From positions 160,001 to 224,000 of IMG/VR virus record IMGVR_UViG_3300033498_000048: DNA of 64,000 nt. The stretch is one strand, 5' to 3'. The translations under genes were made by a program, and so were the position numbers. The notes beneath the pieces were generated by a model that searched no databases, was not told the DNA's origin, and was given only the letters and a program-made list of their open reading frames with translations. Shown here piece after piece: positions 1,878 through 57,175 of this stretch; within the stretch, counting starts at the first letter, position 1, and the number at the start of each line of letters is the position of its first letter. This stretch comes from a virus. Its lineage: Duplodnaviria > Caudoviricetes.

Positions 1878-2653
1878 AATATCAACAGGTTAGCACTTGC
1901 AAACTGGTATTAGTTATATAACTGTTCCAAGTGCTAACTCATTGATTATGTTTAAAAATATAAAACCACCACTAATACCAGTTTGCAAGTGCTAACCTGT
2001 TGATATTGGATGACCATTCTTGTTCAATTATTAAGAATCAATAACATAGCACTTGGAACAGTTTACTAATTAACCAACACCTGTAAGTGCTAACTCATTG
2101 ATTCTTAAACATTCAGTCTAATTAGCACTCGTGGAACTGGTCTTAGTTGTATAATCGTTGCAAGTGCTAACTCATTGATATTATTAGGACACAATCATTC
2201 CGAATTAAATCAATAGGTTAGCATTTACAGATTGGTCTTAGTTATATAACCGTTGATATTTGATTACCATTCTTGTCAATTATGAAGAATCAATGAGTTA
2301 GCACTTGCAACGTGTTAGTAATTACCTAACCGTTATAAATGCTAACTAACTGTTTATTAAGCATTTTCACCATAACCTAACTAAATCAATGAGTTAGCAT
2401 TTATATGGGTGTCTTAATTATATAACGGTTGCAAGTGCTAACCTATTGATTCTTAATACCAACATAAAACTCCAGTATGGACTGATATTAACCATTACTA
2501 ATTCGTTAATATTACCAACGCTTCTAGTCAATTATTTTGAATCAATGACTTAGCACTTGGAACGGTTATATAATTAACTAACTGCTCCAAGTGCTAACTT
2601 ATTGATTTAATTGAGTTTGTGTGATTGTATATGAATCAATGAGTTAGCACTTG
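1878..2653. repeat. Cluster 1 of 66-bp palindromic elements (about 6 full units plus 3 partial)
   Basis: ATCAAT(G/A)(A/G)GTTAGCA(C/T)TT(G/A)-N28-(C/T)AAGTGCTAAC(T/C)(C/T)ATTGAT at 1881-1946, 2037-2102, about 2122-2179, 2289-2354, 2385-2450 and 2541-2606. Partial units at 1971-2007, 2209-2255 and 2635-2653. Confidence 0.95.
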
Positions 2654-2709
2654 GAACAACTAACCAATGAACGACTAAATACCACATACCACATAATTGG
2701 ATAACTTGG

Positions 2710-3189
2710 ATGATAATAAATTTTGATACTGTCACGTTGATATTTATATTCATATTAATTGAATATATCATATACAATTGTATTAAGAGTAAGAATGATA
2801 CAATTCCAGACTGGGATAGAAAGTGTATATGGAAAACAAAAGTAAAAAAATTGGTTAAGGTTGTTGATGGTGATACATTTACAGCATTCGTGGATGGACA
2901 TCATCCAATTGACAATAAACCAATTGGAATTAGAATCAGGGGAATAGATACTCCTGAAATGAAATCGACAGACGAACACACTAAAAGACTAGCAATAGAG
3001 GCTAAAGAAGTTGCTATGGGTGTATTAACTAAGTCCAGAAAGATTGTGCTATATAACGTAAGCTTAAATGACAAATATGGAAGGATGTTAGCGACTGTGT
3101 TTTGTGATGGAATAGATTTAGCCAAACTTCTTCTTAATAGAGGACTGGCTAAACCTTATTTTGGAGGAACTAAAGAGGATTGGGATTAA
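2710..3189 (+). CDS. thermonuclease (SNase family) with N-terminal membrane anchor
   Basis: KVVDGDTF, IRIRGIDTPE and DKYGRMLATV motifs. Confidence 0.9.
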   Translation: MIINFDTVTLIFIFILIEYIIYNCIKSKNDTIPDWDRKCIWKTKVKKLVKVVDGDTFTAFVDGHHPIDNKPIGIRIRGIDTPEMKSTDEHTKRLAIEAKEVAMGVLTKSRKIVLYNVSLNDKYGRMLATVFCDGIDLAKLLLNRGLAKPYFGGTKEDWD

Positions 3190-4589
3190 TTTAGTGCAGC
3201 AAATTTGTTTTTCGGTTGCTGTGGAGTTGGTTGTTTACTATAATTGTGATTAGACACATTTTTTTGTTCTGAATCCATAACGTTATAGATTCGCTGGAGC
3301 ATTAAATCTAAACCTAATAGGAATTTTGAATTGGTGTTTTTATCACCATATCTGTTTTTTAACTGTTTTCCATGAATTTGATTTAATGCCACCAATTCTT
3401 CTGTTTGTGCTAGTGCTATGGCAAAATCCATAGTTGCTGCTACTGCAAGCGATTCGGATATATCAGACATTTCAGCATCCGTAGAACTTTGTGCAGCCCT
3501 ATTCAATTGGAATGCAGACCAACCCACAACATCTAACTCAATGAATAGTCCACGAACTTCTTCCGCAACTGCTTTTAAGTAAAAATAACTAGATGTGTTA
3601 GCTGCCTTTAATCTATAGCTTCCAACTAATCCAAGATAATCAACTAAAATTACTTTTGGGACAAAATTTTGTTTTAATTTTAAATCATTTAATAGTGATT
3701 TAAAGTGCATTACATTTGCAGACCCTGGAGGATATTGTTTTACTTTTATGCGTCCAAAACTAGATTCTTTTATCCTATCAATTTTGGACATATATCTAGT
3801 TCGACCATATTCAGCAAATGAATTTATTGGAATACCCAATACATTAGCATCTATCCGTTTCAATATTTGTTCTTCACTCATTTCCAATGATATGTATAAA
3901 ACATCGTAACCGAGTTTAGCATACATTCCAGCTAAGTAACATAAACTCAATGTTTTACCAACATTTATTCCACTTAATACTATGTTTAATGTTTTACTTT
4001 CAACTCCACCATTTGTAATTGTATTCAAAATGTTTATATCAAATGGGTGTTTGGACAATGGTTGTGTATAATAATCCCAACGTGCATTGGCATCATCTAA
4101 GAAATCCATTCCAACCTTAGTATCAAAACTAATTGATACTGCGTCACGAAGCATATCTGGAATCATAGTTGGTGGAGTTGTTTTATCATCTCCATCGTAT
4201 ATATTAATAGACTTCATAATAGCATTGTAAACGGCTTTATCTTGACAAAACTTTTCAGCTTGTTTTGCCAACCACGCAAAATCGCTAGGGGTTTCAATCT
4301 TGTGAACTTCCCTTACGATGTTTTGAGCTTGAGTCAATTCAATGTCATTTAACTTTGTATTCCGTAAATCAATTAACAAAGTTGTGGCATTTGGTTTTGT
4401 TTGATATTTGGAAATATAGCCAGCAATTGTTTCAAAAACTATTCTTTCCAATTTATCGTGGAAATACTCTGGTTTAATAAACGGTAATGCTTGTCCAATA
4501 AATTCAGTGTTTGTTATCAAACTTCCCAATATCAATTTTTCTGTTGATATATCCATACATAATCCTATTATAATTATTAAATAAAACAC
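3186..4589 (-). CDS. gp41: T4-like replicative DNA helicase (DnaB family)
   Basis: SGINVGKT Walker A, YISLEMSE, RIKVKQYP, ILVDYLG, QLKNRYGD. Likely start at MDISTEK. Confidence 0.95.
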   Translation of the reverse strand: MFYLIIIIGLCMDISTEKLILGSLITNTEFIGQALPFIKPEYFHDKLERIVFETIAGYISKYQTKPNATTLLIDLRNTKLNDIELTQAQNIVREVHKIETPSDFAWLAKQAEKFCQDKAVYNAIMKSINIYDGDDKTTPPTMIPDMLRDAVSISFDTKVGMDFLDDANARWDYYTQPLSKHPFDINILNTITNGGVESKTLNIVLSGINVGKTLSLCYLAGMYAKLGYDVLYISLEMSEEQILKRIDANVLGIPINSFAEYGRTRYMSKIDRIKESSFGRIKVKQYPPGSANVMHFKSLLNDLKLKQNFVPKVILVDYLGLVGSYRLKAANTSSYFYLKAVAEEVRGLFIELDVVGWSAFQLNRAAQSSTDAEMSDISESLAVAATMDFAIALAQTEELVALNQIHGKQLKNRYGDKNTNSKFLLGLDLMLQRIYNVMDSEQKNVSNHNYSKQPTPQQPKNKFAALN

Positions 4590-4626
4590 AATTGGATATT
4601 TAACTTATTCCAATTGTGCATATACA

Positions 4627-6108
4627 TCAATCTATTTCATCTTCAATAACATCAATTGGAACAATACTACTTCCAAATAAATTCGCAGTTGATAATTTAA
4701 AATTGTCAATTACCCATTTTTTAAATGTTGGATTGTCTAATATCGGTGTCCAAAATTCAGAACAATCCGTTTCTTTTAATCTCCATTTTTTAGCTTCAAT
4801 TTCACCTGTATCAAATACTCTTGAATACCAACCTTGGACTGGTTTAATAACAAGCCCTGATTGTAACCCTAACTCAATCAATCCAGTGTAAGTCGATAAT
4901 CCACCATCAAATTTAACTGTAATCGGAATCTTTGATTTCTCTATAACTACTCTTGATTTCTCAACATTTACCACAAAATTATGTCCAATTAATTCTGTTC
5001 CATCTTTTTCTTGTTGTCTACCGATAATGAAAATTGTATCTGCGGAATAATATGGACCCGTATTATGCGTTACAACTCCATTTTCCAAAATATAATGTTC
5101 AGCTTCATAGACTGAAATATCATAAACTGGCAATTTACCAACTATATTAATTGATTTGACAATCCTTCCACTTGTTTTACCAATATACCCATTTGTTGTA
5201 ACTGGAGTATCAATTTTTAAATTTTTTGCCTCTGTCCAACCATCAATTGTTAAAAATGAATGATTGTTTGAACAAGTGACACTATATCCATCATCAAATT
5301 GAATCTCATAACATTCTGGAATGCCAATATGTAACGTATCAGGATTCCATATTGAAGTAACAACTTTATCACCAATCGCAGTTCTAACCTGTTCACCAAC
5401 TTTAATGTTTTGTATTTCTTTAAGAGTGTTGTCCGACATTTGAAGCTTTGTTCCCGACACTAAACAACCTCCACTAACAACTGCTTTTGAATAGATTTCC
5501 TGTGTTTGATAGATGTGTGCCACGATAACACATGGAATGTTCTTTATTTTCATATATGGAGTAATAATTCTAAAAAATGATTTAATCTGTTTAGCTCTGC
5601 TCATATCAGCAACAGATTTTTCATCTTTAGCATCATCAACTTCTTTTTTGGATGCTATATTTCCGATTGAGTCCACAACAAAGATTACTTTATCACCCCG
5701 TTCAATTCCTTCTAATTGGTTTACCATATCGAACTTCAATTCTTCCAAATTCAGGATTGGAATGTGCATTACTCTTCCCATATCAATTTCCAATGAATTG
5801 AAATAGTCTTTAGAAGTACCAAACTCACAATTGTAAAACATTAATACAGACTCAGGATATTTGTCCATGTATTTTTTAGCCATTATCAGGGAAAACATTG
5901 TTTTAAATGATTTCGATGCACCTGCTAATATTGTGATTCCAGGTGAAAAGCCACCATCGACATCTCCCGATAACAAAATATCGAGAGATGGAATCCCAGT
6001 GTGTACGACTTCAGTTTGATTAAAAAACTTAGAGTCCTTTAATATTTCCGTTGCTTTAATTGTTGAATTGCTTTTCAATCTGTCCATCAAGCTTGTTTTT
6101 GTAGCCAT
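4627..6108 (-). CDS. uvsX: UvsX RecA-like recombinase containing a cis mini-intein
   Basis: GASKSFKT Walker A, VVDSIGN, DMSRAK, TGPYYSADTIFIIGRQQEKDG. Confidence 0.95.
   Translation of the reverse strand: MATKTSLMDRLKSNSTIKATEILKDSKFFNQTEVVHTGIPSLDILLSGDVDGGFSPGITILAGASKSFKTMFSLIMAKKYMDKYPESVLMFYNCEFGTSKDYFNSLEIDMGRVMHIPILNLEELKFDMVNQLEGIERGDKVIFVVDSIGNIASKKEVDDAKDEKSVADMSRAKQIKSFFRIITPYMKIKNIPCVIVAHIYQTQEIYSKAVVSGGCLVSGTKLQMSDNTLKEIQNIKVGEQVRTAIGDKVVTSIWNPDTLHIGIPECYEIQFDDGYSVTCSNNHSFLTIDGWTEAKNLKIDTPVTTNGYIGKTSGRIVKSINIVGKLPVYDISVYEAEHYILENGVVTHNTGPYYSADTIFIIGRQQEKDGTELIGHNFVVNVEKSRVVIEKSKIPITVKFDGGLSTYTGLIELGLQSGLVIKPVQGWYSRVFDTGEIEAKKWRLKETDCSEFWTPILDNPTFKKWVIDNFKLSTANLFGSSIVPIDVIEDEID
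5062..5466 (-). mobile_element. mini-intein (135 aa, no endonuclease) in UvsX
   Basis: VVSGG|CLVSGT...TCSNNHSFLT...VYDISV...ENGVVTHN|TGPY. Removal restores SGGTGPYYSAD. Confidence 0.95.
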
Positions 6109-6140
6109 TATTTGTTCCTATAATCCATATCACACAACAA

Positions 6141-7205
6141 TCATATATTGGTTTTAAATTTAATTAATGAGCTTACTGGACGTAAACTACTAACTTCTTT
6201 TTTCTTGGTCTTAGGTTTAATTATATGTTGAGGTTCAACAACTGTCAATTCAGTAGTTTGTTTACGGAATTGATTTAAGTTATTAACTTTAACTGGACTC
6301 CAATTAACTAAATTTGTAAAACTTTCCAATGGTTTTAAGAATGTTTTATTGAATTGGGTTTCTTTATCAACATATTTGTCTAATCCAAATTCCTCTAACA
6401 ATTCATCTGTAAATGCTATTGCATTATTTAATGTTGGATTTTGTTTGATTAAATATAAATATCTAACTTTCATTCCATTGGTAATTAATTGATATTCTTT
6501 ATCTAGTCCATATTTAAATAACTGATTATTGTAGGTTAGGCTAGCTTTGACTTGGACTGGAGTTCCAGACTTCCACGAAAATTTGTTTCCATGTAAACCA
6601 ACATCACTCCAACCACCAATGTCATTTACTCCAGTTGGCTTTGCTATATCATACAAATCAAGCTTAGGGTACGCAGCTTTAAATGATTTAACACGTTGCT
6701 GTAGGTCAGCCTCAGTTCCGTTTAATATTAGCTTAAAACAGGCTTCCAGTTCATTTTTGACTATATTTGGAGTGCTTGTTCGAGCTGTTTCAACACCAAC
6801 TGACTTTAATTTTGGTTCCGCATAACGGACATTTTCATTGTCCCAAACTTGTAAAATGTAGTTCTTTTTCGCTCTCCAAATACCCCTATCACAAATCACT
6901 TCACGTTTCATCTTTAGTGTATTATCAATTGCGTTTAAATAATTTGATAATATCGCAAATTTTTCATCTATAAATGGAGTAACCACTTCATCCGAAAATT
7001 TACTTAAATAGTCCACAATAGTATTAGTTGGAGTGTTTTGTGGAACAACTCTTTCTATTAAATTATTTAATTCTAAATACGAGGAATTATGTAGTAATAC
7101 CCCATTACCAAAAAAGTTGTGACAATCAGCAACTTCAATATCATATACCCATTCTTCTTGTATTCCCAATGATTCGATTGTAAAATTATTTGTTTCTACA
7201 AGCAT
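6141..7205 (-). CDS. gp43: DNA polymerase gp43 C-terminal piece, preceded by a 40-aa C-intein
   Basis: After HN|S come family-B polymerase motifs MKREVI, KKNYIL, KSVGVETARTSTP. Confidence 0.95.
   Translation of the reverse strand: MLVETNNFTIESLGIQEEWVYDIEVADCHNFFGNGVLLHNSSYLELNNLIERVVPQNTPTNTIVDYLSKFSDEVVTPFIDEKFAILSNYLNAIDNTLKMKREVICDRGIWRAKKNYILQVWDNENVRYAEPKLKSVGVETARTSTPNIVKNELEACFKLILNGTEADLQQRVKSFKAAYPKLDLYDIAKPTGVNDIGGWSDVGLHGNKFSWKSGTPVQVKASLTYNNQLFKYGLDKEYQLITNGMKVRYLYLIKQNPTLNNAIAFTDELLEEFGLDKYVDKETQFNKTFLKPLESFTNLVNWSPVKVNNLNQFRKQTTELTVVEPQHIIKPKTKKKEVSSLRPVSSLIKFKTNI
7086..7205 (-). mobile_element. split intein C-fragment (40 aa) of gp43
   Basis: MLVETNNFTIESLGIQEEWVYDIEVADCHNFFGNGVLLHN|S: intein blocks F and G. 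Confidence 0.95.
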
Positions 7206-8241
7206 TAATATTCTCCTGTATTCTTTTTATTTCGGTTTCAAAAAAATTGATATAATCTGTTTCCCATATTATATCTACATAATATCCCAGTGAGCGTAAA
7301 TGGTTATTTTTTATGATGTCATTATCCCATATTTGTTTTGAATTAAGGCTTTTGTTATATGGGTTTGGAGTATCACTCTCGATAAACATTTTTGGATTGG
7401 CGTGAAATACATCACCATTAAACTCTAAACAATATTTAATATCAGTAATTACAAAATCATACTTAAAATATTTAAATTGCTTAGACTCTGAAACCATAGT
7501 AGAACCAAATTCATTTTTATGTTCAGCAAAATAACAATGTTCCCTTTCGACTTCTGTTAAAATATTATCGTAAATGTTCCAACATAAATTTTGGGACATT
7601 TTAGATGCGAATGTGTGTACAGAAGAAATGTAACGGTCATATCTAATCATACCATCAAGTTCACCATACCTATTAATAAAGTTTTGAATTGTGTTAGCCT
7701 TTTTGCTACAAACATCGTTATATTTTTTAACACCATCAGTATTACCGTATTTTTCAATATAATATGGTAATACCTTTCCATTATATTTTTGTTTATCGCA
7801 ATAACTTTTCCATTTTTTATGACCTACGGTTTCACCATATCTTAAAATCATATTATCTAATGTAACAGCTCTCGATTTGTTAAACTTTAAAAAATCAAGT
7901 TCGGTCATTCCAAATTTTTCTTTTTTATATTCAAATGAATTGGTATTTGCTTGCTTATCACAATATGACTTCCACTTTTTACTACCTAATTGATTACCAT
8001 ATCTTAATATCATATTGTCCAACGTTTGGCTTTTTTTAGTTCTTAATAACAAACATCTATCTAATAAGTCATCATGTAATATATTACCATCCATAAATCC
8101 AACAATATACCCACAAATTGATTGTATGGACCAGGTATTATCTAAAAAATGTTTCTTTATTCTTAAATACTCTGATAAGTAATATTCTTTATTAACATTA
8201 CCATCTAACTTCAATTTAAAATCTTTAAAATTAACTACCAT
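7186..8241 (-). CDS. free-standing homing endonuclease (Vsr-like/DUF559-type C-terminal nuclease) between the gp43 halves
   Basis: Repeated (L/E/N)(R/K)YG units, then YDFVI...CLEFNGDVFHANP...LRSLGYYVDIIWETD. It lies between IntN and IntC. Confidence 0.8.
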   Translation of the reverse strand: MVVNFKDFKLKLDGNVNKEYYLSEYLRIKKHFLDNTWSIQSICGYIVGFMDGNILHDDLLDRCLLLRTKKSQTLDNMILRYGNQLGSKKWKSYCDKQANTNSFEYKKEKFGMTELDFLKFNKSRAVTLDNMILRYGETVGHKKWKSYCDKQKYNGKVLPYYIEKYGNTDGVKKYNDVCSKKANTIQNFINRYGELDGMIRYDRYISSVHTFASKMSQNLCWNIYDNILTEVEREHCYFAEHKNEFGSTMVSESKQFKYFKYDFVITDIKYCLEFNGDVFHANPKMFIESDTPNPYNKSLNSKQIWDNDIIKNNHLRSLGYYVDIIWETDYINFFETEIKRIQENINACRNK

Positions 8242-8297: not shown

Positions 8298-8298
8298 A

Positions 8299-10647
8299 TT
8301 ACTTCATCAACTTGATAAACTTGTCTGTACTAATAACTTCAGTTGGTTTAATTGAAATGTTTTTTCCATCACGGTTTACTATTAATGAATGGTCTGCTGT
8401 ACAAATAATTTCAGTTCCATCTACTGTAATTTTAAACAATTCTTTTTTAACTTTGTGAGCCATAACGTATTTTATTGGATTTACAACTAATTTCCCGTTA
8501 ATATCTACTCCATACGCATTTAGATTAAATACTGGTTTAACGATATTGTCAATTTCATTTTTTACTGGAATTGTATTAATTGAATCAAATAAATTCCCTA
8601 TTTTCATATCACCACAATCCATTGAAATTACCGTATCACCAACAACGGAATCTGTATCGGAATAGATGACATAATCAACTCCATTAGTTTTAAACCTAGA
8701 ATTTAAAAACTCGTTTAATCGTTTAGCAATGTATAAGATTACAAGTTGTCCAGTTAGTGTAATACCTTCCGCCATATCATTTGAAGAATATCTGAATCCA
8801 GCGTTTCCACAAGACCCATAACACGAGTTGAGTGCTAATTTTAGGGCTATTTGCATAGCTTCGTGGAATGCCGAATCAGTATATAACTTTTCCAATTCGT
8901 TCTTCAATTCAGCATCCATTAAGTTTGCTAATTTAGTAGTACCACGTTTAGACAATTCGGTTTTAATGAGTTCTATTTTTTTATCAGCAGCTATTCGCAT
9001 CGTTTTATGCGAAACACGGTCATTAAACATTTCAGTGATAATTTCTGGAATGATACCAATTTTATCTTTTGAAAACATTGCCCCATTAGCTGCCATAGCA
9101 CAATTCAGCTTTTTTAAGTGTGCTGTATCTACATTTAAATCAATTAAATCTTCCACTAAATTTCCAGTAGCAGTCTTAACTAATGTTTCATAACTCACGT
9201 TTAACATTCGCATTATTGATGGATATAATGATGTTAAATCAAATGCGACAACCCATTTATATAAACCTGGAATTGGCTCTTTAACAAATGCTCCAGCATA
9301 TCCATCACTTGATTGTTTTTGTGGAGCGGGTGGGATTTGTATTCCTTTTTTTCTAAGTGCGTTATAAACTAAACATTCCCAGTTCTTGACTTGTCCAAAT
9401 ATTTCAGATTGTTTTACTTTACACATATACGCGATTGTTAATCCAATGAAAATGTAATTTAACTTCGCGTCCAACTTTCTAGGCAACCTAACGTCTTGGG
9501 TGTTATATTCTACAAATTTATTATAAGCATACTCTTTAATGTAATTATCAATCGTGAAATAAACATCAATCAATTCATTAGCATTTAGTTTATCCAAATC
9601 AACATTTAATATGTTAATATCAAATTTAGTTGTTTGGATGTAATCTAATTCAATTGGTAATTCTTTTCCATATTGTTGTTGGACACGTTCTTTAAATCTA
9701 CCAATTTTTAATATTTCTAAATCATTGTTTGATTTTAATGCTTTTTGGGATAGTATTCCATTATATAAATTGTGTAATGAACCAAATTCTGAATAATCAA
9801 CCTTCCGTTCTGATAATTCGACTAATGCAATATTATCTAATGAATAACTCCCAAGCTTTTGGGTACTAAACTTTTTATACATTTCGATATAGTCGTATGG
9901 AGAAATACCCAATATTTTATATCCCTTTTTTAAATTATCTAATTCAATTTCGGATATAACATTTCTAGCTTTTTTGTAAAATGGACTCAATCGGTCAGCC
10001 CACTGTTTACCCAATACTTTTTTTATTCGATTGATGATATAGGGAATATCAAATTCATTAATATTGAATCCTGTTATAATATCTGGTTCTATTTTAATCC
10101 ACTCATTAACGAATGTCATTAATAAATGCCGTTCATCGTCACATTCAATATATAATTCATCTGGATTACAATGACCAGTAAATGTTTTAGTTCCAATCGT
10201 TATATAGGTTGTATTATGTGCAAACGTTGCAAGTGTGATACTTGTTACTTCATTATCAGCAACATCTGGAGGTGAATATCCAAGTACAACATCAAATGCA
10301 ACTTCAATATCAAAGTTTAAAATGTTAATCTTTGTTATATCAAACTTTATTAAATCTGGATATTCAGTTGCAATGAATTGATGTGCTAAACTTGTTTGTC
10401 CGTGTATTTGACGATAGTTTCTGTTTTTGCGAATGTACTCATTAGTTTCTTTGACACTATTGAATCGTATGCTTGATAGTTTTTCACCCATAAATCCAAT
10501 TGCATCACCTTTACCCCTGTCACTTGGTACATATAAAACAAATGGGTAATTTTCTAATATTTCAGTCTGTCTTTTTTCTCCATCAAAAAACCTATGGAAT
10601 ATCTTATTTTCTTGCACTTCAACCGATGTGTAAAACTTTTCTGGCAT
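8299..10647 (-). CDS. gp43: DNA polymerase gp43 N-terminal piece ending in an N-intein
   Basis: Exonuclease motifs FDIEV and GFNINEFDIPY; polymerase motifs FDLTSLYPSIM, KLALNSCYG, YSDTD; then the intein N-fragment. Confidence 0.95.
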   Translation of the reverse strand: MPEKFYTSVEVQENKIFHRFFDGEKRQTEILENYPFVLYVPSDRGKGDAIGFMGEKLSSIRFNSVKETNEYIRKNRNYRQIHGQTSLAHQFIATEYPDLIKFDITKINILNFDIEVAFDVVLGYSPPDVADNEVTSITLATFAHNTTYITIGTKTFTGHCNPDELYIECDDERHLLMTFVNEWIKIEPDIITGFNINEFDIPYIINRIKKVLGKQWADRLSPFYKKARNVISEIELDNLKKGYKILGISPYDYIEMYKKFSTQKLGSYSLDNIALVELSERKVDYSEFGSLHNLYNGILSQKALKSNNDLEILKIGRFKERVQQQYGKELPIELDYIQTTKFDINILNVDLDKLNANELIDVYFTIDNYIKEYAYNKFVEYNTQDVRLPRKLDAKLNYIFIGLTIAYMCKVKQSEIFGQVKNWECLVYNALRKKGIQIPPAPQKQSSDGYAGAFVKEPIPGLYKWVVAFDLTSLYPSIMRMLNVSYETLVKTATGNLVEDLIDLNVDTAHLKKLNCAMAANGAMFSKDKIGIIPEIITEMFNDRVSHKTMRIAADKKIELIKTELSKRGTTKLANLMDAELKNELEKLYTDSAFHEAMQIALKLALNSCYGSCGNAGFRYSSNDMAEGITLTGQLVILYIAKRLNEFLNSRFKTNGVDYVIYSDTDSVVGDTVISMDCGDMKIGNLFDSINTIPVKNEIDNIVKPVFNLNAYGVDINGKLVVNPIKYVMAHKVKKELFKITVDGTEIICTADHSLIVNRDGKNISIKPTEVISTDKFIKLMK
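8302..8649 (-). mobile_element. split intein N-fragment (116 aa, Ser1) of gp43 at the YxDTD motif
   Basis: YSDTD|SVVGDTVI...IICTADHSLIV (block B TxxH). Splicing restores YSDTDSSYL. Confidence 0.95.
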
Positions 10648-10648
10648 A

Positions 10649-11247: not shown

Positions 11248-11249
11248 TT

Positions 11250-12327: not shown

Positions 12328-12715
12328 CCTCTAACAATAATGAGTCCAAATAGGACTCATGTTGTTTTAATATTGGCACAACTTCTTTTGCTTTAGTGTA
12401 TGAATAACCATACACTCGCTGTATTTTATCAATTAATACTGTATCGTCAATATTTTTATTCCACTTGGAATACCGTTTTCGTTTTGGTATAACATGGAAT
12501 AAAAATGTGTATTGCATTTGAATGTCCATTTCAAATCTGATATTCAATTCATTCACAAGTAAAGCCGTATCTCGATATTGAGATAGTGCTTTATTAATCA
12601 TAAATGGATTATACTCAGCAGTTAATTGTTCTTCAATTAATTCTGTTTTTCCATTTGTGATATTGTTCACAATATCAAATAAACCTAAAGATGGTTGGTT
12701 GTCCAATGTACTCAT
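12299..12715 (-). CDS. gp62: clamp loader small subunit
   Basis: YNPFMINKALSQ...KRKRYSKW...YGYS; synteny. Confidence 0.9.
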   Translation of the reverse strand: MSTLDNQPSLGLFDIVNNITNGKTELIEEQLTAEYNPFMINKALSQYRDTALLVNELNIRFEMDIQMQYTFLFHVIPKRKRYSKWNKNIDDTVLIDKIQRVYGYSYTKAKEVVPILKQHESYLDSLLLEGGKVNKKIK

Positions 12716-14106
12716 TTGAACTCCAAATCCCGCATTAACTCGGTTAGCATTGCAACTATATTCAATTCTTTATCGGAAACAAAGTTTGACTTATAATCAT
12801 AATCTGATAACGTTAGTACCAATTGTGGTAACGAACTTGGAATAACATAATCTGGGGCTTTAAGATAAATTGCTCTTGATAATGTCATTTGGGAATTGTC
12901 TAAATTACTAACAACCCATTTTCTAACCTCGTTCCATTTACTGGGGTCTCTTAAATATGTAAACAACTCATCAATATTAGCATCTGATAAACTTGTTAAT
13001 ACGAGTTCGTCCAACCTGTTATTGACCATTGATAATTGTTGTAACGTTGTTGTGATTTTTCGCATATCTGGAAAATGCGTTGTTATTACCTTCGCAACAA
13101 CATTCCTATCATATTCAACTCCCTCATGGTCTAATATTTCTAGCATTCTTTTTTCAAGTGGGAGTATCACTTCCATTTTTTCAGCTTTAGTAAGTGCAAA
13201 GTCAACAACTGCACACCTACTTTTTAATGGACCCATAATTCTATTGCTAAAATTGGCAGTCAATATAAACCTACAGTTTGCACTATAGGTTTCCATAAAG
13301 TTTCTTAATGCAGGTTGTGTGCTATTACAATTGTGAGCTACTACACCATTTTCCAAAATGAAATTGTGATTATCATCATTAGTAGTCAAATCATAAACTG
13401 GTAACATTCCCAATGATTCCATCGACACAATGGTTTTTGTTTTTCCATTGGAATCAACAAGCTTATCACCAATTTTGATACCATCCTTTTTTTCTGATAC
13501 TCCACAATATCCATTTATTGATTCAATGGTGTAAAAAGGATGGTCTTTTGTGCAATACATTCTTGAATAATCATCAAATTGTACAATGTACACTTCGCCT
13601 ATTCCCGACTTGAATACGAATGCTTCTGCTGTGTATTGTTCACCTGTTGTTGTGTTATATGATAATATATTAACTGTTTTATCATAAATTGAATCAAATG
13701 ACTTTAATTCTGGAACACCATCTATATTCACAGTGTAAATATGTTGGTTTCCAGCAAAACAATTTAAATAATCGGCTTCATCTAATAATACTACTTTATA
13801 TCCACCTCTATTCTTCATACTAACGGTGCTAGCATAACGTTCAATCGTAGTTCGGAGCGTATCAATGTTCCCATCTTTCGAGGCATTGATTTCCAGTAAG
13901 TCAATGCCCATATCACTACACAACGCTCTTGGAATTGTGGTTTTTCCAACACCCTGATAACCAGTGAACAACATATTTGTTATTTGTCCACTGTCAATAA
14001 TAGCTTGAAAATAGTTTTTTAATCTCGATGGTAAAATAACATTAGCCATCGTTCTTGGACGAAACTTCTCAGCCCAAAGTGGTTGATTCGGAGTAATATC
14101 CAACAT
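12712..14106 (-). CDS. gp44: clamp loader large subunit with a cis mini-intein
   Basis: LWAEKFRP, GYQGVGKTT, LLDEADYL, SRC. Confidence 0.95.
   Translation of the reverse strand: MLDITPNQPLWAEKFRPRTMANVILPSRLKNYFQAIIDSGQITNMLFTGYQGVGKTTIPRALCSDMGIDLLEINASKDGNIDTLRTTIERYASTVSMKNRGGYKVVLLDEADYLNCFAGNQHIYTVNIDGVPELKSFDSIYDKTVNILSYNTTTGEQYTAEAFVFKSGIGEVYIVQFDDYSRMYCTKDHPFYTIESINGYCGVSEKKDGIKIGDKLVDSNGKTKTIVSMESLGMLPVYDLTTNDDNHNFILENGVVAHNCNSTQPALRNFMETYSANCRFILTANFSNRIMGPLKSRCAVVDFALTKAEKMEVILPLEKRMLEILDHEGVEYDRNVVAKVITTHFPDMRKITTTLQQLSMVNNRLDELVLTSLSDANIDELFTYLRDPSKWNEVRKWVVSNLDNSQMTLSRAIYLKAPDYVIPSSLPQLVLTLSDYDYKSNFVSDKELNIVAMLTELMRDLEFK
13330..13761 (-). mobile_element. mini-intein (144 aa) in gp44
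   Basis: DEADYLN|CFAGNQ...CTKDHPF...VYDLT...ENGVVAHN|CNSTQPALR. Confidence 0.95.
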
Positions 14107-19599: not shown

Positions 19600-20220
19600 A
19601 TCAATAGGTTAGCACTTGATACCGTTAGGTAATTAATATATCGTTCCAAGTGCTAACCAGTTGATATTTGATTACATTCTTGTCAATTATTAAGAATCAA
19701 TGAGTTAGCACTTACATTGGTCTATTAATTATATAACAGTTACAACTGCTAACCTATTGATATTATTAATACTACATCACATCCAATTAAATCAATGACT
19801 TAGCACTTACAACGGTTATATAATTAATAGACCAATGCAAGTGCTAAGTCATTGATTCTTGATAACCGATATTATGTCCAACCAAGTGTTAGCTATAACT
19901 GTCAATTAAATATAAATCAATAAGTTAGCATTTGGAACAGTCTTATAATTAGTAAATGGTATCAAGTGCTAAGTCACTTGACTTAAAATGAATTAGACAA
20001 CTTCACTATTGGTTCTAAAATGATTAGAGCATTACCAATCATTCTCAATTTTAACCGATTTACCGTTGGTACTAAGAATCAATGACTTAGCACTTGCATT
20101 GGTCTGTTAATTATATAACCGTTGTAAGTGCTAACCTATTGATTTTTATTCACTGTCAATTAAATATAAATCAATAAGTTAGCATTTGGAACAGTCTTAC
20201 TAATTAACCTTATGCTAATC
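19600..20220. repeat. Cluster 2 of 66-bp palindromic elements (5 full plus 1 partial)
   Basis: Units at 19600-19665, 19696-19761, 19791-19856, 19916-19981 and 20078-20143, partial from 20170. 48-bp direct repeat at 19898-19945 and 20152-20199. Confidence 0.95.
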
Positions 20221-20223
20221 ACA

Positions 20224-20252
20224 TTGACTATTTTTTGATTCGATAATATAAT
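20224..20252 (+). promoter_or_regulatory. sigma70-type promoter upstream of uvsY
   Basis: TTGACT-N17-TATAAT. Confidence 0.7.
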
Positions 20253-20279: not shown

Positions 20280-20705
20280 ATGGAATTGGAACAAATACAA
20301 ACCGAAATACAACTTGATAGTGTATTAAATGAAACTAAGCTTGATACTGAAAGTTTAAAGATTCCTATGTTACATTCAAAATGGTACAACTATTTAATAT
20401 TTGAAGCTCAGACATTAAAAAGGGTTGAACGAACATTTAACAAAGTAAAAAAGGCTAGAATTGAATATTATTTAGGGAAAGCTCCAGATGAAGTATATAA
20501 AGAACACCCTAAACCATACAATGTGTTAAAACAGGATTTAGAGTTGTATTTGAGTGCTGATGATGAATATCAAGTTCAACAAGAGTTGATAACTAACCAA
20601 CAAATCAAAATTGATTTAATTGAGCAGTTTTTAAAGCAAGTTTCGCAGCGTTCATTTAATATAAAAAACGCAATAGATTTTATGAAGTTTAAAAGTGGAT
20701 TGTGA
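20280..20705 (+). CDS. uvsY: UvsY recombination mediator
   Basis: LDTESLKIPMLHSKW...YYLGKAP...R.FNIKNAIDF. Confidence 0.92.
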   Translation: MELEQIQTEIQLDSVLNETKLDTESLKIPMLHSKWYNYLIFEAQTLKRVERTFNKVKKARIEYYLGKAPDEVYKEHPKPYNVLKQDLELYLSADDEYQVQQELITNQQIKIDLIEQFLKQVSQRSFNIKNAIDFMKFKSGL

Positions 20706-23269: not shown

Positions 23270-23277
23270 TATAAATA
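23270..23277 (+). promoter_or_regulatory. T4-type late promoter
   Basis: TATAAATA followed by an AGGAG SD. Confidence 0.8.
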
Positions 23278-24675: not shown

Positions 24676-24891
24676 GTCAACAAGTTAGCACTTAGGACAC
24701 ATTAAGTTATTCATTGTCAATTATTATAAATCAATAGGTTAGCACTTACATGGGTGTATTAATTATATAACTGTTCCAAGTGCTAACCTATTGATAGTGT
24801 TATCATTCATTATCAATTATTATAAATCAACAAGTTAGCACTTGGAACGTGTTAGTAATTACTTAATGAGTGTAAGTGCTAAGTCATTGAT
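24676..24891. repeat. Cluster 3 of 66-bp palindromic elements (2 full plus 1 half)
   Basis: 24730-24795 and 24826-24891; half arm at 24676-24694. Confidence 0.95.
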
Positions 24892-46934: not shown

Positions 46935-46949
46935 TATTATTCCATATCG

Positions 46950-48837: not shown

Positions 48838-49973
48838 ACAAATCCCCTAAGTGATTGATTGTTTGTTTTGTAATAAGTATCATTATAATCATTTTTAAAA
48901 CAATCGTGTTCAAAGTTCAACATTACAACTTGACCCGTGTTCCTAAAATGATTTTGTTTGTCCTTGTGTACACCTTTACATCTTGGGTTATATTCAAATA
49001 GTAAATACTCAGGTAAGCAATTATGTCTAATATTCCAGAATAAATCAAAACGTTTATTCCATTTAATTTCAGCATATTTTATTCTATCGTGAAACATATC
49101 ATTATACACATTTGGATAACGTCTATTTTTCCTATACCACGATTTGTAGCAGCACAAGGTTGATTCTAATGTAAAATAATTTACATCATTAATATAATTT
49201 TCTTCCTTGAACCTACCAATACATTCGCTTAACAGTACACCACCTTCAATTGTTAATGCTTCAATAATACCTTTATCATATTTACCATCAAAATCTGGAT
49301 TAGATTGTGAATGCCAATCTAAATCGTCACGCCCCAATACCTTGCACAAACCATTCCTATGTGATTTACTACCATTCAAATCATGTAAAAACAATGAACT
49401 ACAGCAAATATTTAAGCCTATTATTTTCAAATATTCTAAATATGAAAATGTCGATAGTCTCCCGAATAAGTAAAACTTATCAATTACAGTTTTCCATACT
49501 GTATCAAAATTATCAAATTGGTTGTCGGTATTGCACATTGATGTGAAAAAATTATGTTGAGTATCGTATTTAGAGATTATTTCTTTATAATTTAGAATCA
49601 TATTCTCTAATTTATTTTTTACATATCTCCTATCTGTATCCCAACCAAACTTAGTATAGTTTTCTCTGAAAAAAACAGAAAATTTGTCAATATCGAGTGT
49701 GTTAAAATCACTAAAATTCTCAAACAAAATCCATGATGTAATAATATTTTGACAACAACCATTTAAAAACACCAACCAATATTGCTGCTCTATATTTAAA
49801 TTGTGTATTTTAATTAACTCTGGAATGACATAATACACTGCCCCAGGGTGTGATTTATATTTTAAATGGAATTGATAAAACCTAATAAATGTTTCACGCC
49901 GATATTTGTGTTCCCTGAAATCAGAACCAACAACCAAGTTTGAATCATTGTTGCTGTTAATTTTAAATACCAT
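48825..49973 (-). CDS. aGPT-Pplase2 / amino acid:DNA transferase-like protein
   Basis: DTDRRY, FGRLSTFSYLEYL, SKSHRNGL, FTLESTLCCYK, RRYPNVY. Confidence 0.8.
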   Translation of the reverse strand: MVFKINSNNDSNLVVGSDFREHKYRRETFIRFYQFHLKYKSHPGAVYYVIPELIKIHNLNIEQQYWLVFLNGCCQNIITSWILFENFSDFNTLDIDKFSVFFRENYTKFGWDTDRRYVKNKLENMILNYKEIISKYDTQHNFFTSMCNTDNQFDNFDTVWKTVIDKFYLFGRLSTFSYLEYLKIIGLNICCSSLFLHDLNGSKSHRNGLCKVLGRDDLDWHSQSNPDFDGKYDKGIIEALTIEGGVLLSECIGRFKEENYINDVNYFTLESTLCCYKSWYRKNRRYPNVYNDMFHDRIKYAEIKWNKRFDLFWNIRHNCLPEYLLFEYNPRCKGVHKDKQNHFRNTGQVVMLNFEHDCFKNDYNDTYYKTNNQSLRGFVCKK

Positions 49974-51375
49974 AATTTGTTCCTGTAAAATATTGTAATA
50001 TAGGTTTATGATATTGCTCTAACCAATCTTTGCCATTATCTTTAGTTAGTAAGAACTCATACCACTCCCTAGCACATTCATAATTACCATCTTTTTCTAT
50101 TATATTACCAAAAGAATTTGTTCCAACTCCATTCCAACCTTTGATATTTGAATTGTTTTTCCTCAACTCAACAAATTCTTTTCGGGCTTGCTCATATTCA
50201 TATGTGCCTAGTGATAACATCCCTTCATGTAAAAATGCTATCACACTAACACGTTCAGCATCGGGTTCATGTAACACTATCTCAGTATTACCATGTAAGC
50301 CTTGCATATTATTGATTAATAGTAAATCGCGGGGTCTAATATCAATTGCATATCCAATTTCAGGTAATACTAAATGTCCACCAGAATAATTATCATTTTT
50401 GGATAATACACATAAATTAGCAAAACCTTGTTCCATGTTTGCTGGGTCATAATGTGCTGAGGTTCTGAAATTTTTATTTACAGTAATAGTGGTAAATGGT
50501 GTGTTAGGTACAATGAACTTATTATCTATTTTATCACAAGCTGCTAGTTGATTAGCATACCTAATTGGTAATAACTCTTTGAATAATTGTGCCAGCCTTT
50601 CTAAAAATGGAAAAGATAATTTAAATTTTTCATAGTTGTTTTTTGTGTATGCCGTTTCACGCCCAAACGGAATCCTTGGGTATCTATCATAATATCCAGC
50701 AACCCCAGAGTTTACAAAGTTTGCGTATATTGTTTTTGATATGTACGATTTAACCAATTTACAATTATCTACAATAGTTGTAAATTCATATTGTCCAGAC
50801 TTAATTGTACTAATTAATTCAAAATACCACAATTCAAAATTAAAATTATTTATAATAACTTTATTAGATATGTAAACTTTATCGGTATATTCTGGTTCAC
50901 TTTTATACACCTCAAATATTGATTCCAACTGTAATATTGTTTCAGTTGTAATTCTTTTACAATTAATTAAAATATCCAGTATAGAAAGTTCTTGTTTTGT
51001 TGCTCTGACCCTATTACCATGTAATCTAGTGTTTATTTTTCCACTAGCATTACCTCGATTATCTGTTGGAACTGCTGCGTCAGCCAACCCATCATACCCA
51101 GATTCAACTTCAGATTGAGTGAATGCGTTTTTTCTAAACTTGAATAGTATGTATTTTTCTGGATTTGAATTAACACACCTAATACAATCATCTTTTGTTT
51201 GGCAGTTATTACCTTTAGCATATTTTAATAACCCTCCAGGGTTACAAGAATCATATAGATATAAGTCGGTATCTTCAGTTATTAATGTGTGGTATGATGT
51301 ATCATCTAACCACTCCCTAACCAATTCTTGTTTGTTAGTATAATCTTTAATTGTTAAAACTATTTGTTTAACCAC
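49963..51375 (-). CDS. TET/JBP-family 2OG-Fe(II) dioxygenase
   Basis: TPFTTITVNKNFRTSAHYD (HxD), GGHLVLPE, LHGNT, RVSVIAF; GATAAATA at 51409-51416. Confidence 0.85.
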   Translation of the reverse strand: MVKQIVLTIKDYTNKQELVREWLDDTSYHTLITEDTDLYLYDSCNPGGLLKYAKGNNCQTKDDCIRCVNSNPEKYILFKFRKNAFTQSEVESGYDGLADAAVPTDNRGNASGKINTRLHGNRVRATKQELSILDILINCKRITTETILQLESIFEVYKSEPEYTDKVYISNKVIINNFNFELWYFELISTIKSGQYEFTTIVDNCKLVKSYISKTIYANFVNSGVAGYYDRYPRIPFGRETAYTKNNYEKFKLSFPFLERLAQLFKELLPIRYANQLAACDKIDNKFIVPNTPFTTITVNKNFRTSAHYDPANMEQGFANLCVLSKNDNYSGGHLVLPEIGYAIDIRPRDLLLINNMQGLHGNTEIVLHEPDAERVSVIAFLHEGMLSLGTYEYEQARKEFVELRKNNSNIKGWNGVGTNSFGNIIEKDGNYECAREWYEFLLTKDNGKDWLEQYHKPILQYFTGTNYGI

Positions 51376-51505
51376 ATCAATGCTCCTTGTTTTTGTGTAT
51401 TGTTGTAGTATTTATCACAATAATCAAACGCAACATTTATATTTACACTACCACAACAGTCTGCTAAAATTGTACATTTAAACGTATTAATTTGGAGTCA
51501 TCATT

Positions 51506-52063
51506 ATGTTTGGATTTATTGTTTCGGTATTGTTATTTGTGTTTTTATATTTTATGATACCAGATGATGGAGTAACTATTAAACCAGATGATGGAGTAAC
51601 TATTAAACCTGATATTGGAATATTTGAATCTGATTTAGATTGTATAAGTGAGGCTATTTACTTTGAAAGTAGGGGTGAACCAGAGAGAGGTCAACAACTT
51701 GTTGCGTGGTCAATTATCAACAGAAGTATTGTAACTGGATTAAGTATGTGTGAAGTGGTACATTACCCAATGCAATATTCATATAGGAATTGTATTAATC
51801 CAGATACAAACAAACCTATAAACGCAAAAGAATGGAACAAGATATTGAACAAAGTTTGTCCAGTATTAGTAATGTCGGATTTACAAAGCAAAGCAAACTC
51901 AGAAAGAATTGCAATGGAAGTTTTAGATGATTATAACTTACATGGAGCAACAGAAAACACAACACACTTTCACCATATTCGATTAGGTGGAGTTCGATAT
52001 GGTGGAACAAACTCACAACTTATTGGAAATCAATTGTATTATTCAGCTCCAGACGCACTTTGA
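51506..52063 (+). CDS. SleB-type cell wall hydrolase with N-terminal membrane anchor
   Basis: CISEAIYFESRGEP..GQ.LVAWSIINR...QYS. Confidence 0.85.
   Translation: MFGFIVSVLLFVFLYFMIPDDGVTIKPDDGVTIKPDIGIFESDLDCISEAIYFESRGEPERGQQLVAWSIINRSIVTGLSMCEVVHYPMQYSYRNCINPDTNKPINAKEWNKILNKVCPVLVMSDLQSKANSERIAMEVLDDYNLHGATENTTHFHHIRLGGVRYGGTNSQLIGNQLYYSAPDAL
51560..51607 (+). repeat. perfect 24-nt tandem duplication (PDDGVTIK x2)
   Basis: CCAGATGATGGAGTAACTATTAAA occurs twice in tandem. Confidence 0.9.
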
Positions 52064-52073
52064 AAAATACAAA

Positions 52074-52102
52074 TTGACAGAAATCAGCTTTAGTCATAAA
52101 AT
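52074..52102 (+). promoter_or_regulatory. sigma70-type promoter
   Basis: TTGACA-N17-TAAAAT upstream of the primase-helicase gene. Confidence 0.7.
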
Positions 52103-52198
52103 AGCTTTAGCGAATGAGTATTAAATATATAATGAATGGAAGTGAACAAATACCCATGTGTTTAACCTTAAACCTTAAACTTTTGGATTGTAGATATA

Positions 52199-55096: not shown

Positions 55097-55257
55097 ATCA
55101 ATAGGTTAGCACTTACAACCGTTAAGGTATTATATAACTGTTCCAAATGCTAACTCGTTGTTTAATATACATAAAGTTGTAAGGTATATAAATCAATAGG
55201 TTAGCACTTACAAGTGATAGTTAATTATAAGACCAGTCAAAGTGCTAAGTCATTGAT
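55097..55257. repeat. Cluster 4 of 66-bp palindromic elements (2 units)
   Basis: 55097-55162 and 55192-55257, starting right after the stop codon of the primase-helicase. Confidence 0.92.
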
Positions 55258-55475
55258 TATTACATCATTGTCAATTATAACTGTATTTGGAATAACAATG
55301 ATGTAAATTACTTCTAAAGACCGATAATGGAGCAACTATATGTGACTATGTAAAATGTTTTTCGTGCGATAAAACACACTGGAGTGCAAATTAATGATGT
55401 TTTGTAGACTCAAGAATCATATTGATTCGGTTGAGAATACCCACACGCCTTAAGCAATTGAATCACAAGTTCGAG

Positions 55476-55504
55476 TTGACATTATAATACGAATTGTGTA
55501 ATAT
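55476..55504 (+). promoter_or_regulatory. sigma70-type promoter
   Basis: TTGACA-N17-TAATAT. Confidence 0.6.
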
Positions 55505-55533
55505 AACGTCAACTAAACCAACGGAGTATAAAC

Positions 55534-55722
55534 ATGGAACTAAAATTATACGTTTTGCGACACATAAGTGGAGCTTATATGACTAAATCAGGTGATGTTA
55601 ATAGAGGCAATCAAGCAGATATGGCAATATATACTAAACGACATTTTGCAGAGGCAAAGTTAAGACGGAATTTCACAGTGATTGAATTTGATGCACAATT
55701 AACTGAAGTAGGGATGAGTTAA
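55534..55722 (+). CDS. hypothetical protein
   Basis: ORF with GGAG SD. Confidence 0.55.
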   Translation: MELKLYVLRHISGAYMTKSGDVNRGNQADMAIYTKRHFAEAKLRRNFTVIEFDAQLTEVGMS

Positions 55723-56394
55723 ATGCGAATCATTAGACCTAATGGAATTACAGATTTATATGATTGTATGGCTGGTGTGTGTGGTATAGACCCATTAGTT
55801 ACATTAAAACACAAATCAAAATTTGACAAATGTACAATCACATCGAAAGGTGGCTTTAAATTACAAAATTTTAATTACATAAACAATATAGAAAATCCAA
55901 AAACAAGGACACAAATATATTACACTATTGTTGTTTGTGGAATACCATATGTTATTAGAAAACGTTTAATTGGCTATGAACGTAATACTTGGTCTCCAGA
56001 TAGACCAATGTTCGATAAAATGGTTATATCAAAAGAAGAGTTTTTGATGGAATTTGATAAACCATCATCCAAAATTGTTGATTATGCTGAATCACTAGAG
56101 AAGTATTCTCAACATTGGGTTGATTTTCATAAATTTTACAATTATCCAATTATGTTGTTAGAAAGCGAAACCTATGATAAAGTTAGAAGTGAATACAATT
56201 CAACTGTAAGTAGTGTTGTTCCTATGCTTAATGACTTTAAGTTCGCTCGTGTTAAATCCCCTATGGAATTATATCTCGAAATTCAAAGTTTTATGTTACA
56301 ATTGAAAAATACAAATGTTCCAGTGATTTTATCTGACTCCGACTTAGCAATTAAACACGGATTCAACAAACAGTCATTTAGAAAAAGAAAATGA
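55723..56394 (+). CDS. hypothetical phage protein
   Basis: ORF ending in the ..KHGFNKQSFRKRK pattern. Confidence 0.6.
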   Translation: MRIIRPNGITDLYDCMAGVCGIDPLVTLKHKSKFDKCTITSKGGFKLQNFNYINNIENPKTRTQIYYTIVVCGIPYVIRKRLIGYERNTWSPDRPMFDKMVISKEEFLMEFDKPSSKIVDYAESLEKYSQHWVDFHKFYNYPIMLLESETYDKVRSEYNSTVSSVVPMLNDFKFARVKSPMELYLEIQSFMLQLKNTNVPVILSDSDLAIKHGFNKQSFRKRK

Positions 56395-56468
56395 TAATGG
56401 CAATGTTTCCATTGGAAGCTAACAGAAAATAAATCAGTTGACTAAATACTTAATTTTTAATAGGAAAA

Positions 56469-56950
56469 ATGATGAAAACGTTTAAGCAATTTCTAGGTGA
56501 AGCAACAACAAGTTCATTCGGTATTTTTGACACAAAATACCTGGGTGTCAACGATGCTGAAAAAACAATTAGTGCAAACTATCCTGATAACCTTAACATA
56601 TAAAAGGTATCGAATTTTTCGATACGATTTATATGTCTGATATTATTAGAAAGGCTAGTGCTAAGTTGGACAAGTCAGGTCAAGAATCATATTTAGGTTA
56701 TTTACCCAAAGAAGATTTGTTCATATCAGGGTGGGACACATGGTCAGATGATGAGGAAGATGATTATAGAGATTTTAACCCCACCGAATCATTTAGTGGC
56801 AACTTAGCATTTGTTAAGGTAAATGATAAAGGTGTTGCCAAAGTTATTAATATCTCTGGTGACGCTGGTGATATGATGTACGGGAGTGGTGGTTCACTAA
56901 GTAAATTAAAGAAAGAATATCCTAACTTAGTTAATATTAGATTAGATTAA
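56469..56950 (+). pseudogene. frameshifted capsid-targeted protein (56469-56603 plus 56633-56950)
   Basis: MMKTFKQFLGEA... stops after 44 aa. Removing 2 nt at AACATA-TA-AAAGGT joins it to IKGIEFFDTIY-MSDIIRK of the next ORF. Confidence 0.55.
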
Positions 56951-57109
56951 AATTGGGTTAGTTTGATGTACTTACGCATTTAACGTAATGTCTATCAACG
57001 AATTAGCAAATGGTAGCAGAATCTCGACTGTGAAAATTTAGTCCAACAAAAGAAGACTATGTAATTTGATTATACACAATTGATATTTTTATATACCTCC
57101 CTTACAATA

Positions 57110-57175
57110 AACAACGAGTTAGCACTTGGAACGATTATGTAACTAATACCAGTTTCCAAGTGCTAACTCGTTAAT
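57110..57175. repeat. Cluster 5: single 66-bp palindromic element
   Basis: AACAACGAGTTAGCACTTG-N28-CAAGTGCTAACTCGTTAAT. Confidence 0.9.

Follow-up and report, generated by a model that had tools for sequence, protein, structure and literature searches.

The 64,000-nucleotide stretch of DNA analysed here (hereafter the window) covers positions 160,001-224,000 of a virus record that is complete at 305,782 bp, has terminal repeats and a G+C content of 31%, was obtained from a microbial mat metagenome and is the genome of an uncultured T4-like jumbo phage of about 306 kb. The window contains five intergenic clusters of a 66-bp palindromic unit in which two inverted arms, most of them fitting the IHF consensus, flank a 28-bp core, and the same unit was found in about 40 clusters (about 35-43) throughout the phage genome. 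The anatomy of the unit, its statistics, the constraint acting on it at the DNA level and the reshuffling of its copies can be read directly from the genome. From these we infer, tentatively, what binds the units and what they do: they would be DNA-level docking arrays for an architectural protein complex and would be reshuffled by recombination.

Distribution of the units in the window and the genome

The arm sequence ATCAATRRGTTAGCACTTR was matched 34 times in the window when up to three mismatches were allowed, compared to 0.24 matches expected from shuffled sequences, and the frequency of arms is two to three orders of magnitude over chance. Fourteen strict units were found, each exactly 66 bp long with a 28-bp core, and the total rises to about 16-18 when units with one degenerate arm (2120-2179, 2209-2255, 19916-19981 and 20170-20215) are counted. 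This agrees with a preliminary description of the window, in which about 16 full units had been reported in the same five intergenic clusters. A scan of the whole genome, which had been proposed there, showed that the family is genome-wide, with 215 arms, 87 paired units (81 of exactly 66 bp) and 41 unpaired arms. The 28-bp length given earlier for the core holds for all 14 strict units of the window and, as the spacing from arm to arm, for 81/88 arm pairs genome-wide. Judged against a crude set of open reading frames (ORFs) covering 87% of the genome, 207 of the 215 arms are intergenic, and the junctions that contain arms make up 19.0 of the 53.6 kb of intergenic DNA, or about a third. About 25 further intergenic copies keep TTAGCACTT and the core without the ATCAAT part of the arm.

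In the source run, contigs end at the units and read depth accumulates at these places. Two other freshwater studies have runs with relatives of about 90% identity that bear units at the same locus and, given that the contigs of these two studies have the units, the repeat family is not an assembly artefact.

Anatomy of the half-unit

The composition of the half-unit was determined from 162 half-units. Position 0 is A or T (160/162), positions 1-5 read ATCAA, positions 6-9 are T-R-R-S, which is the least conserved stretch of the arm, and positions 10-18 are TTAGCACTT, in which G13 and C14 are invariant (162/162). Positions 19-21 are R-S-A, followed by a variable stretch that holds an RTTA element, and positions 31-33 are TAA, giving a unit centre of TAAYTA. 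The arm consensus proposed earlier is a real pattern, except that position 9 is S (G or C) and not G alone. Core positions 22-30 are nearly free and stand next to arm positions of restricted alphabet (R at positions 7-8 and S at position 9).

The IHF consensus WATCAANNNNTTR has 221 matches in the genome, 164 of them in arms, and the other 57 compare with a shuffled expectation of 52.6. The earlier claim that most arms match this consensus was therefore confirmed, with 164/215 arms (76%) fitting it and with the enrichment of matches confined to the arms. The least conserved arm positions 6-8 fall within the N4 stretch of the consensus. The invariant TTAGCACTT is fused to the IHF box and is not accounted for by IHF, nor is the invariant GCACTT.

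The core had been described as fixed and polar, with the sequence TTATATAAC. This sequence is present in about half of the cores and the rest have halves of the ATTAGGTAA or ATTAAGTAA type. What had appeared as a fixed polar core is really a heterotypic pairing of two half-core types that are one base apart in register: type A has TTA at positions 26-28 (typically GAACNGTTATATAA or NNNNNATTAGGTAA) and type B has TTA at positions 27-29 (typically CANNGTGTTAGTAA or CANNNTGGTMTTAR). Among 81 units, 68 were A/B, 6 were A/A and 1 was B/B, and identity between left and right halves at positions 19-30 was far below the shuffled expectation (e.g. 7 vs 37.6 expected at position 28). The polarity is unrelated to gene strand and can flip between copies. 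The inner elements would form a 17-bp inverted repeat (RTTA-N9-TAAY) centred at 33.0, with the outer arms centred at 33.5, and the apparent polarity probably arises because an odd inner site lies within an even outer site. The heterotypic core may instead, or in addition, serve to avoid a perfect 66-bp palindrome.

Spacing of the arrays and their linkers

Neighbouring units are separated by linkers of 27-30 bp in 46/70 cases (mode 29), and in 28 of about 50 neighbouring pairs the units repeat every 92-96 bp, most often every 95 bp or about nine helical turns. The linkers belong to a few types, each of which is polar and faces outward from the arm throughout. In the F1 linker the motif TAATAATTGACA lies 6 nt outside the arm, as in the outward-facing example at 19666-19695 on the minus strand, and 15 copies of the 12-mer were found genome-wide compared to 0.4 expected. 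In the F2 linker TTAATTGAG abuts the arm.

Constraint at the DNA level and reshuffling of the copies

The variable arm positions (6-9 and 16) differ independently between the two arms of a unit, with both identity and pairing compatibility at the shuffled expectation, and no compensatory covariation between left and right arms was detected. On the sense strand of 54 units located between co-directional genes, 64 G·U and 62 A·C oppositions were counted (p = 0.93), which indicates that pairing in the transcript is not selected. Folding energies of nine window units ranged from -5.1 to -20.1 kcal/mol, with z-scores from -0.95 to -9.4. Since there is neither covariation nor a G·U bias and the hairpin energy is uneven, it is the double-stranded sequence that appears to be recognised and not a hairpin. 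The restricted alphabets and invariant blocks beside a nearly free core likewise show selection on sequence, as for protein-binding sites. Arm conservation without covariation, the absence of a G·U bias, the strict spacing and the helical phasing together support the protein-DNA architecture that had been proposed from the spacing.

The copies of the unit are mosaics close to linkage equilibrium, and between-unit distances in segments 10-20 bp apart are nearly uncorrelated (Mantel r <= 0.26). Adjacent identical 94-bp steps occur (e.g. at 67,872 and 67,966), the same half-cores are found with different partners and, in the units at genome positions 282,275 and 283,392, the flanks match in the same orientation (21/25 and 15/25) with cores that are reverse-complementary at 27/28 positions. 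These patterns fit recombination between inverted arms combined with exchange at the centre, which would also randomise polarity.

Occurrence in related phages

When viral, metagenome and genome contig collections were scanned for the pattern, the unit was found in no other record and the hits were single unrelated hairpins. Neither an arm nor a comparable repeat family was present in two records whose portal is 60% identical (127 kb and 67 kb). In a relative with a 70% identical UvsY, the gap upstream of uvsY is 146 bp and holds the promoter only, compared to 717 bp with ten arms at this place in the present phage, and a 291-kb relative (UvsY 52% identical) had no arms in the 20 kb around uvsY. 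The repeat family is young or lineage-specific and lies outside the conserved T4-type programme. No description of the element was found in the literature.

Possible docking arrays for an architectural complex

The reading that we favour, with some reserve, is that a half-unit would present three conserved parts to proteins: the IHF-consensus outer box (W-ATCAA-N4-TTA), the fused TTAGCACTT, and the inner RTTA beside the constant TAAYTA centre. A host IHF-type protein may occupy the outer box and a phage or host factor may occupy TTAGCACTT and the inner repeat, so that a DNA-bending or architectural complex would assemble cooperatively on the helically phased arrays (95 bp, with 29-bp linkers carrying outward-facing F1 or F2). 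The outcome would be direction-independent nucleoprotein blocks between transcription units in the plastic accessory-gene regions, serving as boundary, compaction or recombination-organising elements. Homologous recombination by the phage between arms would then give rise to core flips, half-unit exchange at the centre and duplication of the 95-bp step. That the nearest cultured relatives of the phage infect IHF-bearing proteobacteria was counted in favour of this reading.

Several findings weigh against it. No binding protein was identified for the units: family searches of the complete phage genome gave no HU/IHF, ParB_N, HTH_3 or MotA, and none of 30 array-flanking genes showed a DNA-binding domain. 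The host may be without IHF. The footprint of IHF is 34-35 bp, and from this footprint adjacent outward-facing IHF boxes about 29 bp apart would not all be occupiable at once. Finally, the family is missing at 52-70% protein identity, including the region upstream of uvsY, which indicates that it is dispensable for the T4-like core programme and is fitted equally well by a selfish repeat.

In a more far-reaching version, which we consider improbable, the arrays would be the cis part of a phage chromatin-like system, in which a phage-specified or retargeted host IHF-type complex, assembled in helical phase on the 66-bp composite sites, might set up insulated transcription or recombination domains across the 306 kb and focus recombination at the AT-rich centres.

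The units as a possible selfish repeat

The chief rival to docking arrays is a selfish non-autonomous repeat, similar to REP/BIME or to a transposable element of the miniature inverted-repeat type (MITE), that spreads in tolerated intergenic DNA. The conserved positions would then serve a mobilising enzyme or recombination-driven copying, with no benefit to the phage. We regard this as rather unlikely, although much of the distribution speaks for it: the family is lineage-restricted and absent at the orthologous site in the 70% relative, it shows no preference for junction type or strand, it occupies plastic regions only and is missing in the replication and structural modules, truncated or half copies and mosaic arrays are common, and arm-bearing junctions have come to fill the large share of intergenic DNA given above. 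However, the complete phage genome contained no Y1 transposase (RAYT, PF01797), rve or TnpB and no tyrosine (PF00589) or serine (PF00239) recombinase, integrase or resolvase. There is also no consistent target-site duplication, as the flanks extend the palindrome, and a strict 28-bp core, a constrained 29-bp linker and helical phasing are not expected from independent insertions. The restricted alphabets together with near linkage equilibrium point to long-term selection or intense conversion over a recent burst.

Relation to genes and transcription signals

Junction types were compared for gaps of at least 70 bp. Arms were present in 5/22 convergent, 5/31 divergent, 5/13 plus-plus and 26/98 minus-minus gaps (31/111 for co-directional gaps), and this lack of a junction-type preference indicates that the arrays are not simple promoters or terminators.

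An RNA-level role, with the units acting as intercistronic or 3' hairpins (terminators, attenuators, RNase III sites or mRNA stabilisers) like REP in E. coli or the stem-loops of promoter-early stem-loop (PeSL) cassettes, appears quite improbable. Some units must be transcribed through because they lie only a few bases from a stop and the following start codon; several are 2-30 nt from both, leaving no room for a promoter, and are probably transcribed. Lone units are also found between convergent genes (e.g. genome 120776-120840, 8 and 7 bp from the two stops) and most units can fold. On the other hand, there is no covariation or pairing excess at variable stem positions and no bias of G·U over A·C, the folding energy is inconsistent, Rfam covariance models gave no match at the gathering score in the window, and divergent junctions have arrays just as often. 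The units are not followed by a U-tract, though the phage has canonical hairpin-plus-T-run terminators elsewhere, e.g. beside the array at genome 127094. A terminator scan of the arrays found none, the units being AT-rich and without a T-run, and the intrinsic terminator was rejected as an identity for the unit, which has neither a GC-rich stem nor a U-tract. None of the RNA runs searched for the sequence contained it.

It is very unlikely that the units are middle-class or bidirectional promoters, with the arm as an activator box and the central TATAAT/TAATTA as -10. TATAAT does stand at positions 29-34 of A-type cores, ATGACT-18-TATAAT is obtained with GAC-type arms, and the phage is without MotA. 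Further, an arm is found within 100 bp of 15 of the 80 strong sigma70-type promoters. This proximity is no more than expected, because the arrays occupy so much of the intergenic DNA, and the distance between an arm and the true promoter ranges from 0 to 91 bp. Within arrays, promoter-like matches occur no more often than in shuffles, the TATAAT type is present in only about half of the cores, arrays are found at convergent junctions, and core polarity shows no relation to gene strand (16 vs 17 in minus-minus and 6 vs 4 in plus-plus gaps). Specific promoter pairings (TTAGCA or ATCAAT as -35, the F1 TTGACA paired with a -10 in the following arm, and the MotA-box-like GTGCTAAC) were tried and rejected, as they had no consistent spacing and their polarity was unrelated to gene strand.

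Least probable among these explanations are the origin-like roles: multiple replication origins, recombination or break sites seeding recombination-dependent replication as in hr regions, or packaging signals, some of which had been put forward in the preliminary description. The architectural analogy with baculovirus hr regions and with IHF-site-flanked origins is one argument for them. T4 oriF is located just upstream of uvsY and one array has this same position. In addition, units exchange halves and are truncated at the AT-rich centre, which is compatible with breakage there. None of the tests supported origins or packaging sites: about 40 loci are far too many for origins, and relatives have no array at uvsY. 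GC skew, which follows the coding strand (r=0.86), shows no replication signal and does not bear on origins. Packaging of the T4 type works by the headful and without regard to sequence, which argues against packaging signals. The arrays may be an IHF sink, as also suggested earlier, but IHF would leave the invariant TTAGCACTT unexplained.

Comparison with known systems

The earlier statement that no named phage element has this form needs to be modified, as PeSL cassettes are a named comparator in T4-type phages; it holds in that the 66-bp family is without the defining features of PeSLs. A PeSL cassette combines a strong sigma70 promoter with a GC-rich stem-loop terminator that finishes in a Shine-Dalgarno sequence and start codon (Arbiol et al. 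2010, PMC2839356). Like PeSLs, the units are a dispersed, repeated intergenic cassette of about 100 bp in plastic regions, where they bracket accessory genes and small ORFs and act as a recombination substrate between copies. Unlike PeSLs, they have neither an early promoter per cassette nor a GC-rich terminator stem-loop, nor any fixed promoter or terminator features; they are AT-rich, form tandem phased arrays without intervening genes and are also located at convergent junctions.

With REP/BIME sequences, and especially the IHF-binding BIME-1 (RIP/RIB), the units share high copy number, extragenic location, lineage specificity, alternating mosaic arrays, fixed-length linker motifs and an IHF-consensus box. 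They differ in being a 66-bp palindrome with a 28-bp heterotypic core for which stem pairing is not selected, so that a conserved hairpin is missing, and in their carrier, a lytic-type phage whose genome has no RAYT gene. The IHF box is in the linker in BIME-1, whereas in the phage it is in every arm. Baculovirus hr regions are also multi-locus tandem arrays in a large DNA virus, with units of about 70 bp that form an imperfect palindrome, are present in 2-8 repeats and are bound by a dimeric viral protein. The likeness is architectural only; there is no relation in sequence or host domain, and the phage has five times as many loci.

The stoperators of cluster A mycobacteriophages (L5 gp71 sites) resemble the units in that dozens of copies of one site, a protein-binding site in stoperators and a putative one in the units, are found in short intergenic regions across a phage genome. 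They are 13 bp long and asymmetric, their orientation follows transcription and the repressor that binds them is identified, whereas the units are 66-bp symmetric composites without orientation bias. Correia elements, which are MITEs of Neisseria, are short intergenic elements with terminal inverted repeats and an IHF site, but their TA target duplications, length of 100-155 bp, single copies and location in a bacterial chromosome are not features of the phage units. A MITE was rejected as an identity for the units, their flanks being inverted (AAGA/TCTT) or palindromic (TTAA) and not direct target duplications, and the phage having no cognate transposase.

The TTAGCACT stretch of the arm corresponds to a half-site of the CIRCE/HrcA operator (TTAGCACTC-N9-GAGTGCTAA), matching it at 8/9 positions. 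CIRCE was excluded because the partner spacing is wrong, with the gap between TTAGCAC and GTGCTAA being 34 in 55/64 pairs and never 13, and because position 18 is T (161/162) rather than C; no CIRCE-like site was found even with four mismatches. A site-specific recombination site of the lox/FRT/res/attC type was rejected as well, since the phage encodes neither a tyrosine nor a serine recombinase and the core, at 28 bp, is not a short crossover core. A comparison by eye with the FNR, Fis, NtcA, LexA and DnaA consensuses gave no match.

Clusters of the window and their neighbours

No strand is assigned to any of the five window clusters. Cluster 1 (1881-2653) consists of five full units at 1881-1946, 2037-2102, 2289-2354 (with a degenerate right arm), 2385-2450 and 2541-2606, together with half or truncated units at 1972-2004, 2120-2179, 2209-2255 and 2635-2653, the first of which is an inverted copy of the left half of the unit at 1881. 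Cluster 2 (19600-20215) is formed by units at 19600-19665, 19696-19761, 19791-19856, 19916-19981 (again with a degenerate right arm) and 20078-20143 and a partial unit at 20170-20215. Directly 3' of it, the plus-strand uvsY promoter (20224-20252, sigma70-type TTGACT-17-TATAAT) precedes the uvsY gene (20280-20705), and, within 20170-20252, the decayed outer arm of the last unit of the cluster provides its -35 hexamer (TTGACT). At three other array ends (genome 116593, 254221 and 281104) a TTGACA -35 overlaps the last base of the arm.

Cluster 3 (24676-24891) contains an orphan arm (24676-24694) and units at 24730-24795 and 24826-24891 that are joined by a 30-bp linker of F1 type (24796-24825). 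It lies between two minus-strand genes, 5 bp from the stop of one and 2 bp from the start of the next. Cluster 4 (55097-55257), with units at 55097-55162 and 55192-55257, begins one base past the stop codon of the gene for a 965-aa primase-helicase. Cluster 5 is a single unit (57110-57175), with a degenerate arm at 56994-57012; the unit is upstream of the next start codon at a distance of about 24-35 nt, into which a separate promoter would not fit.

Genome-wide, the clusters avoid the replication and structural modules and are found among small ORFs and accessory genes. Neighbours of the arrays include cREC, peptide deformylase, an SNase homologue, uvsY, lectin-domain paralogues and a TnsA-like nuclease, and two late promoters are located directly 3' of arrays. 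Five Laminin_G_3 (ConA-like lectin) paralogues on the plus strand (genome 49458-51329, 69215-71068, 87165-88733, 88730-92386 and 289309-291477) stand among minus-strand genes; 4/5 adjoin repeat clusters and two are served by late promoters right after an array. A paralogue analysis for a cassette gene or homing endonuclease tied to the arrays gave the lectin family and a few pairs, with no link to a nuclease. A 152-aa protein with a TnsA-like endonuclease N-terminal domain is encoded on the minus strand (genome 283545-284003) beside the cluster at 283261-283491, with no TnsB/rve partner in the genome.

Further features of the phage and of other records

The phage encodes a T4-type portal (E = 3e-149) and tail sheath, replication genes (family B polymerase, clamp loader and DnaB-like helicase), recombination genes (UvsX, UvsW, UvsY and a gp46-like ATPase), several inteins and a TET/JBP oxygenase. 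By portal, its closest cultured relatives are Acidovorax, Variovorax and Xanthomonas phages (44-49% identity), followed by cyanophages. About 80 strong sigma70-type promoters (TTGACA-N16-18-TATAAT) were found in the genome. The T4-type late promoter TATAAATA is rarer than chance genome-wide (45 vs about 123 expected); 23 copies are intergenic, and 23/23 of these are correctly oriented with a start codon 11-52 nt downstream. Examples in the window are located at 23270, 25626, 34845, 38518 and 41100. Intein splicing domains are present inside the genes for family B polymerase (8299-10647), UvsX (4627-6108) and the clamp loader (12712-14106), all on the minus strand of the window. The minus-strand gene at 49963-51375 encodes a TET/JBP-family 2OG-Fe dioxygenase, which suggests cytosine hypermodification of the phage DNA.

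A 290,956-bp record (jgi 3300037810, Ga0376277_0000297) and a 178-kb record represent another T4-like jumbo phage, the 291-kb relative with a 52% identical UvsY mentioned above, which has a G+C content of 29% and a split UvsW with inteins; one source labels it as a Bacteroidales metagenome-assembled genome. Several unrelated IMG/VR viral contigs share a conserved hairpin of 49 nt that has TTAGCACTTCAAAGTT as arms and GGGTGGACTCTT as flanks and is unrelated to the 66-bp family. Tandem copies of a different repeat of about 47 bp (GGGAAAAAGTCCGCAAAAAACATATTTAGCAC) were found at 7740-7900 of a 466-kb IMG/VR contig of a very large phage.

Biological meaning

A base-pair-precise, phased repeat whose junctions make up about a third of the non-coding DNA comes at a high price for a virus in which recombination occurs readily at short homologies. 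Should the units be selfish, they would represent a rare REP-like expansion inside a lytic-type phage without a recognisable transposase, and would point to recombination-driven spread. If they are docking platforms, they would show how a jumbo phage organises or insulates a very large genome and would reveal a new protein-DNA recognition code, and should the chromatin-like system prove true, it would be a functional bacteriophage counterpart of the hr regions in large eukaryotic DNA viruses. Under either reading, docking or selfish, the arms are a ready probe for the binding protein.

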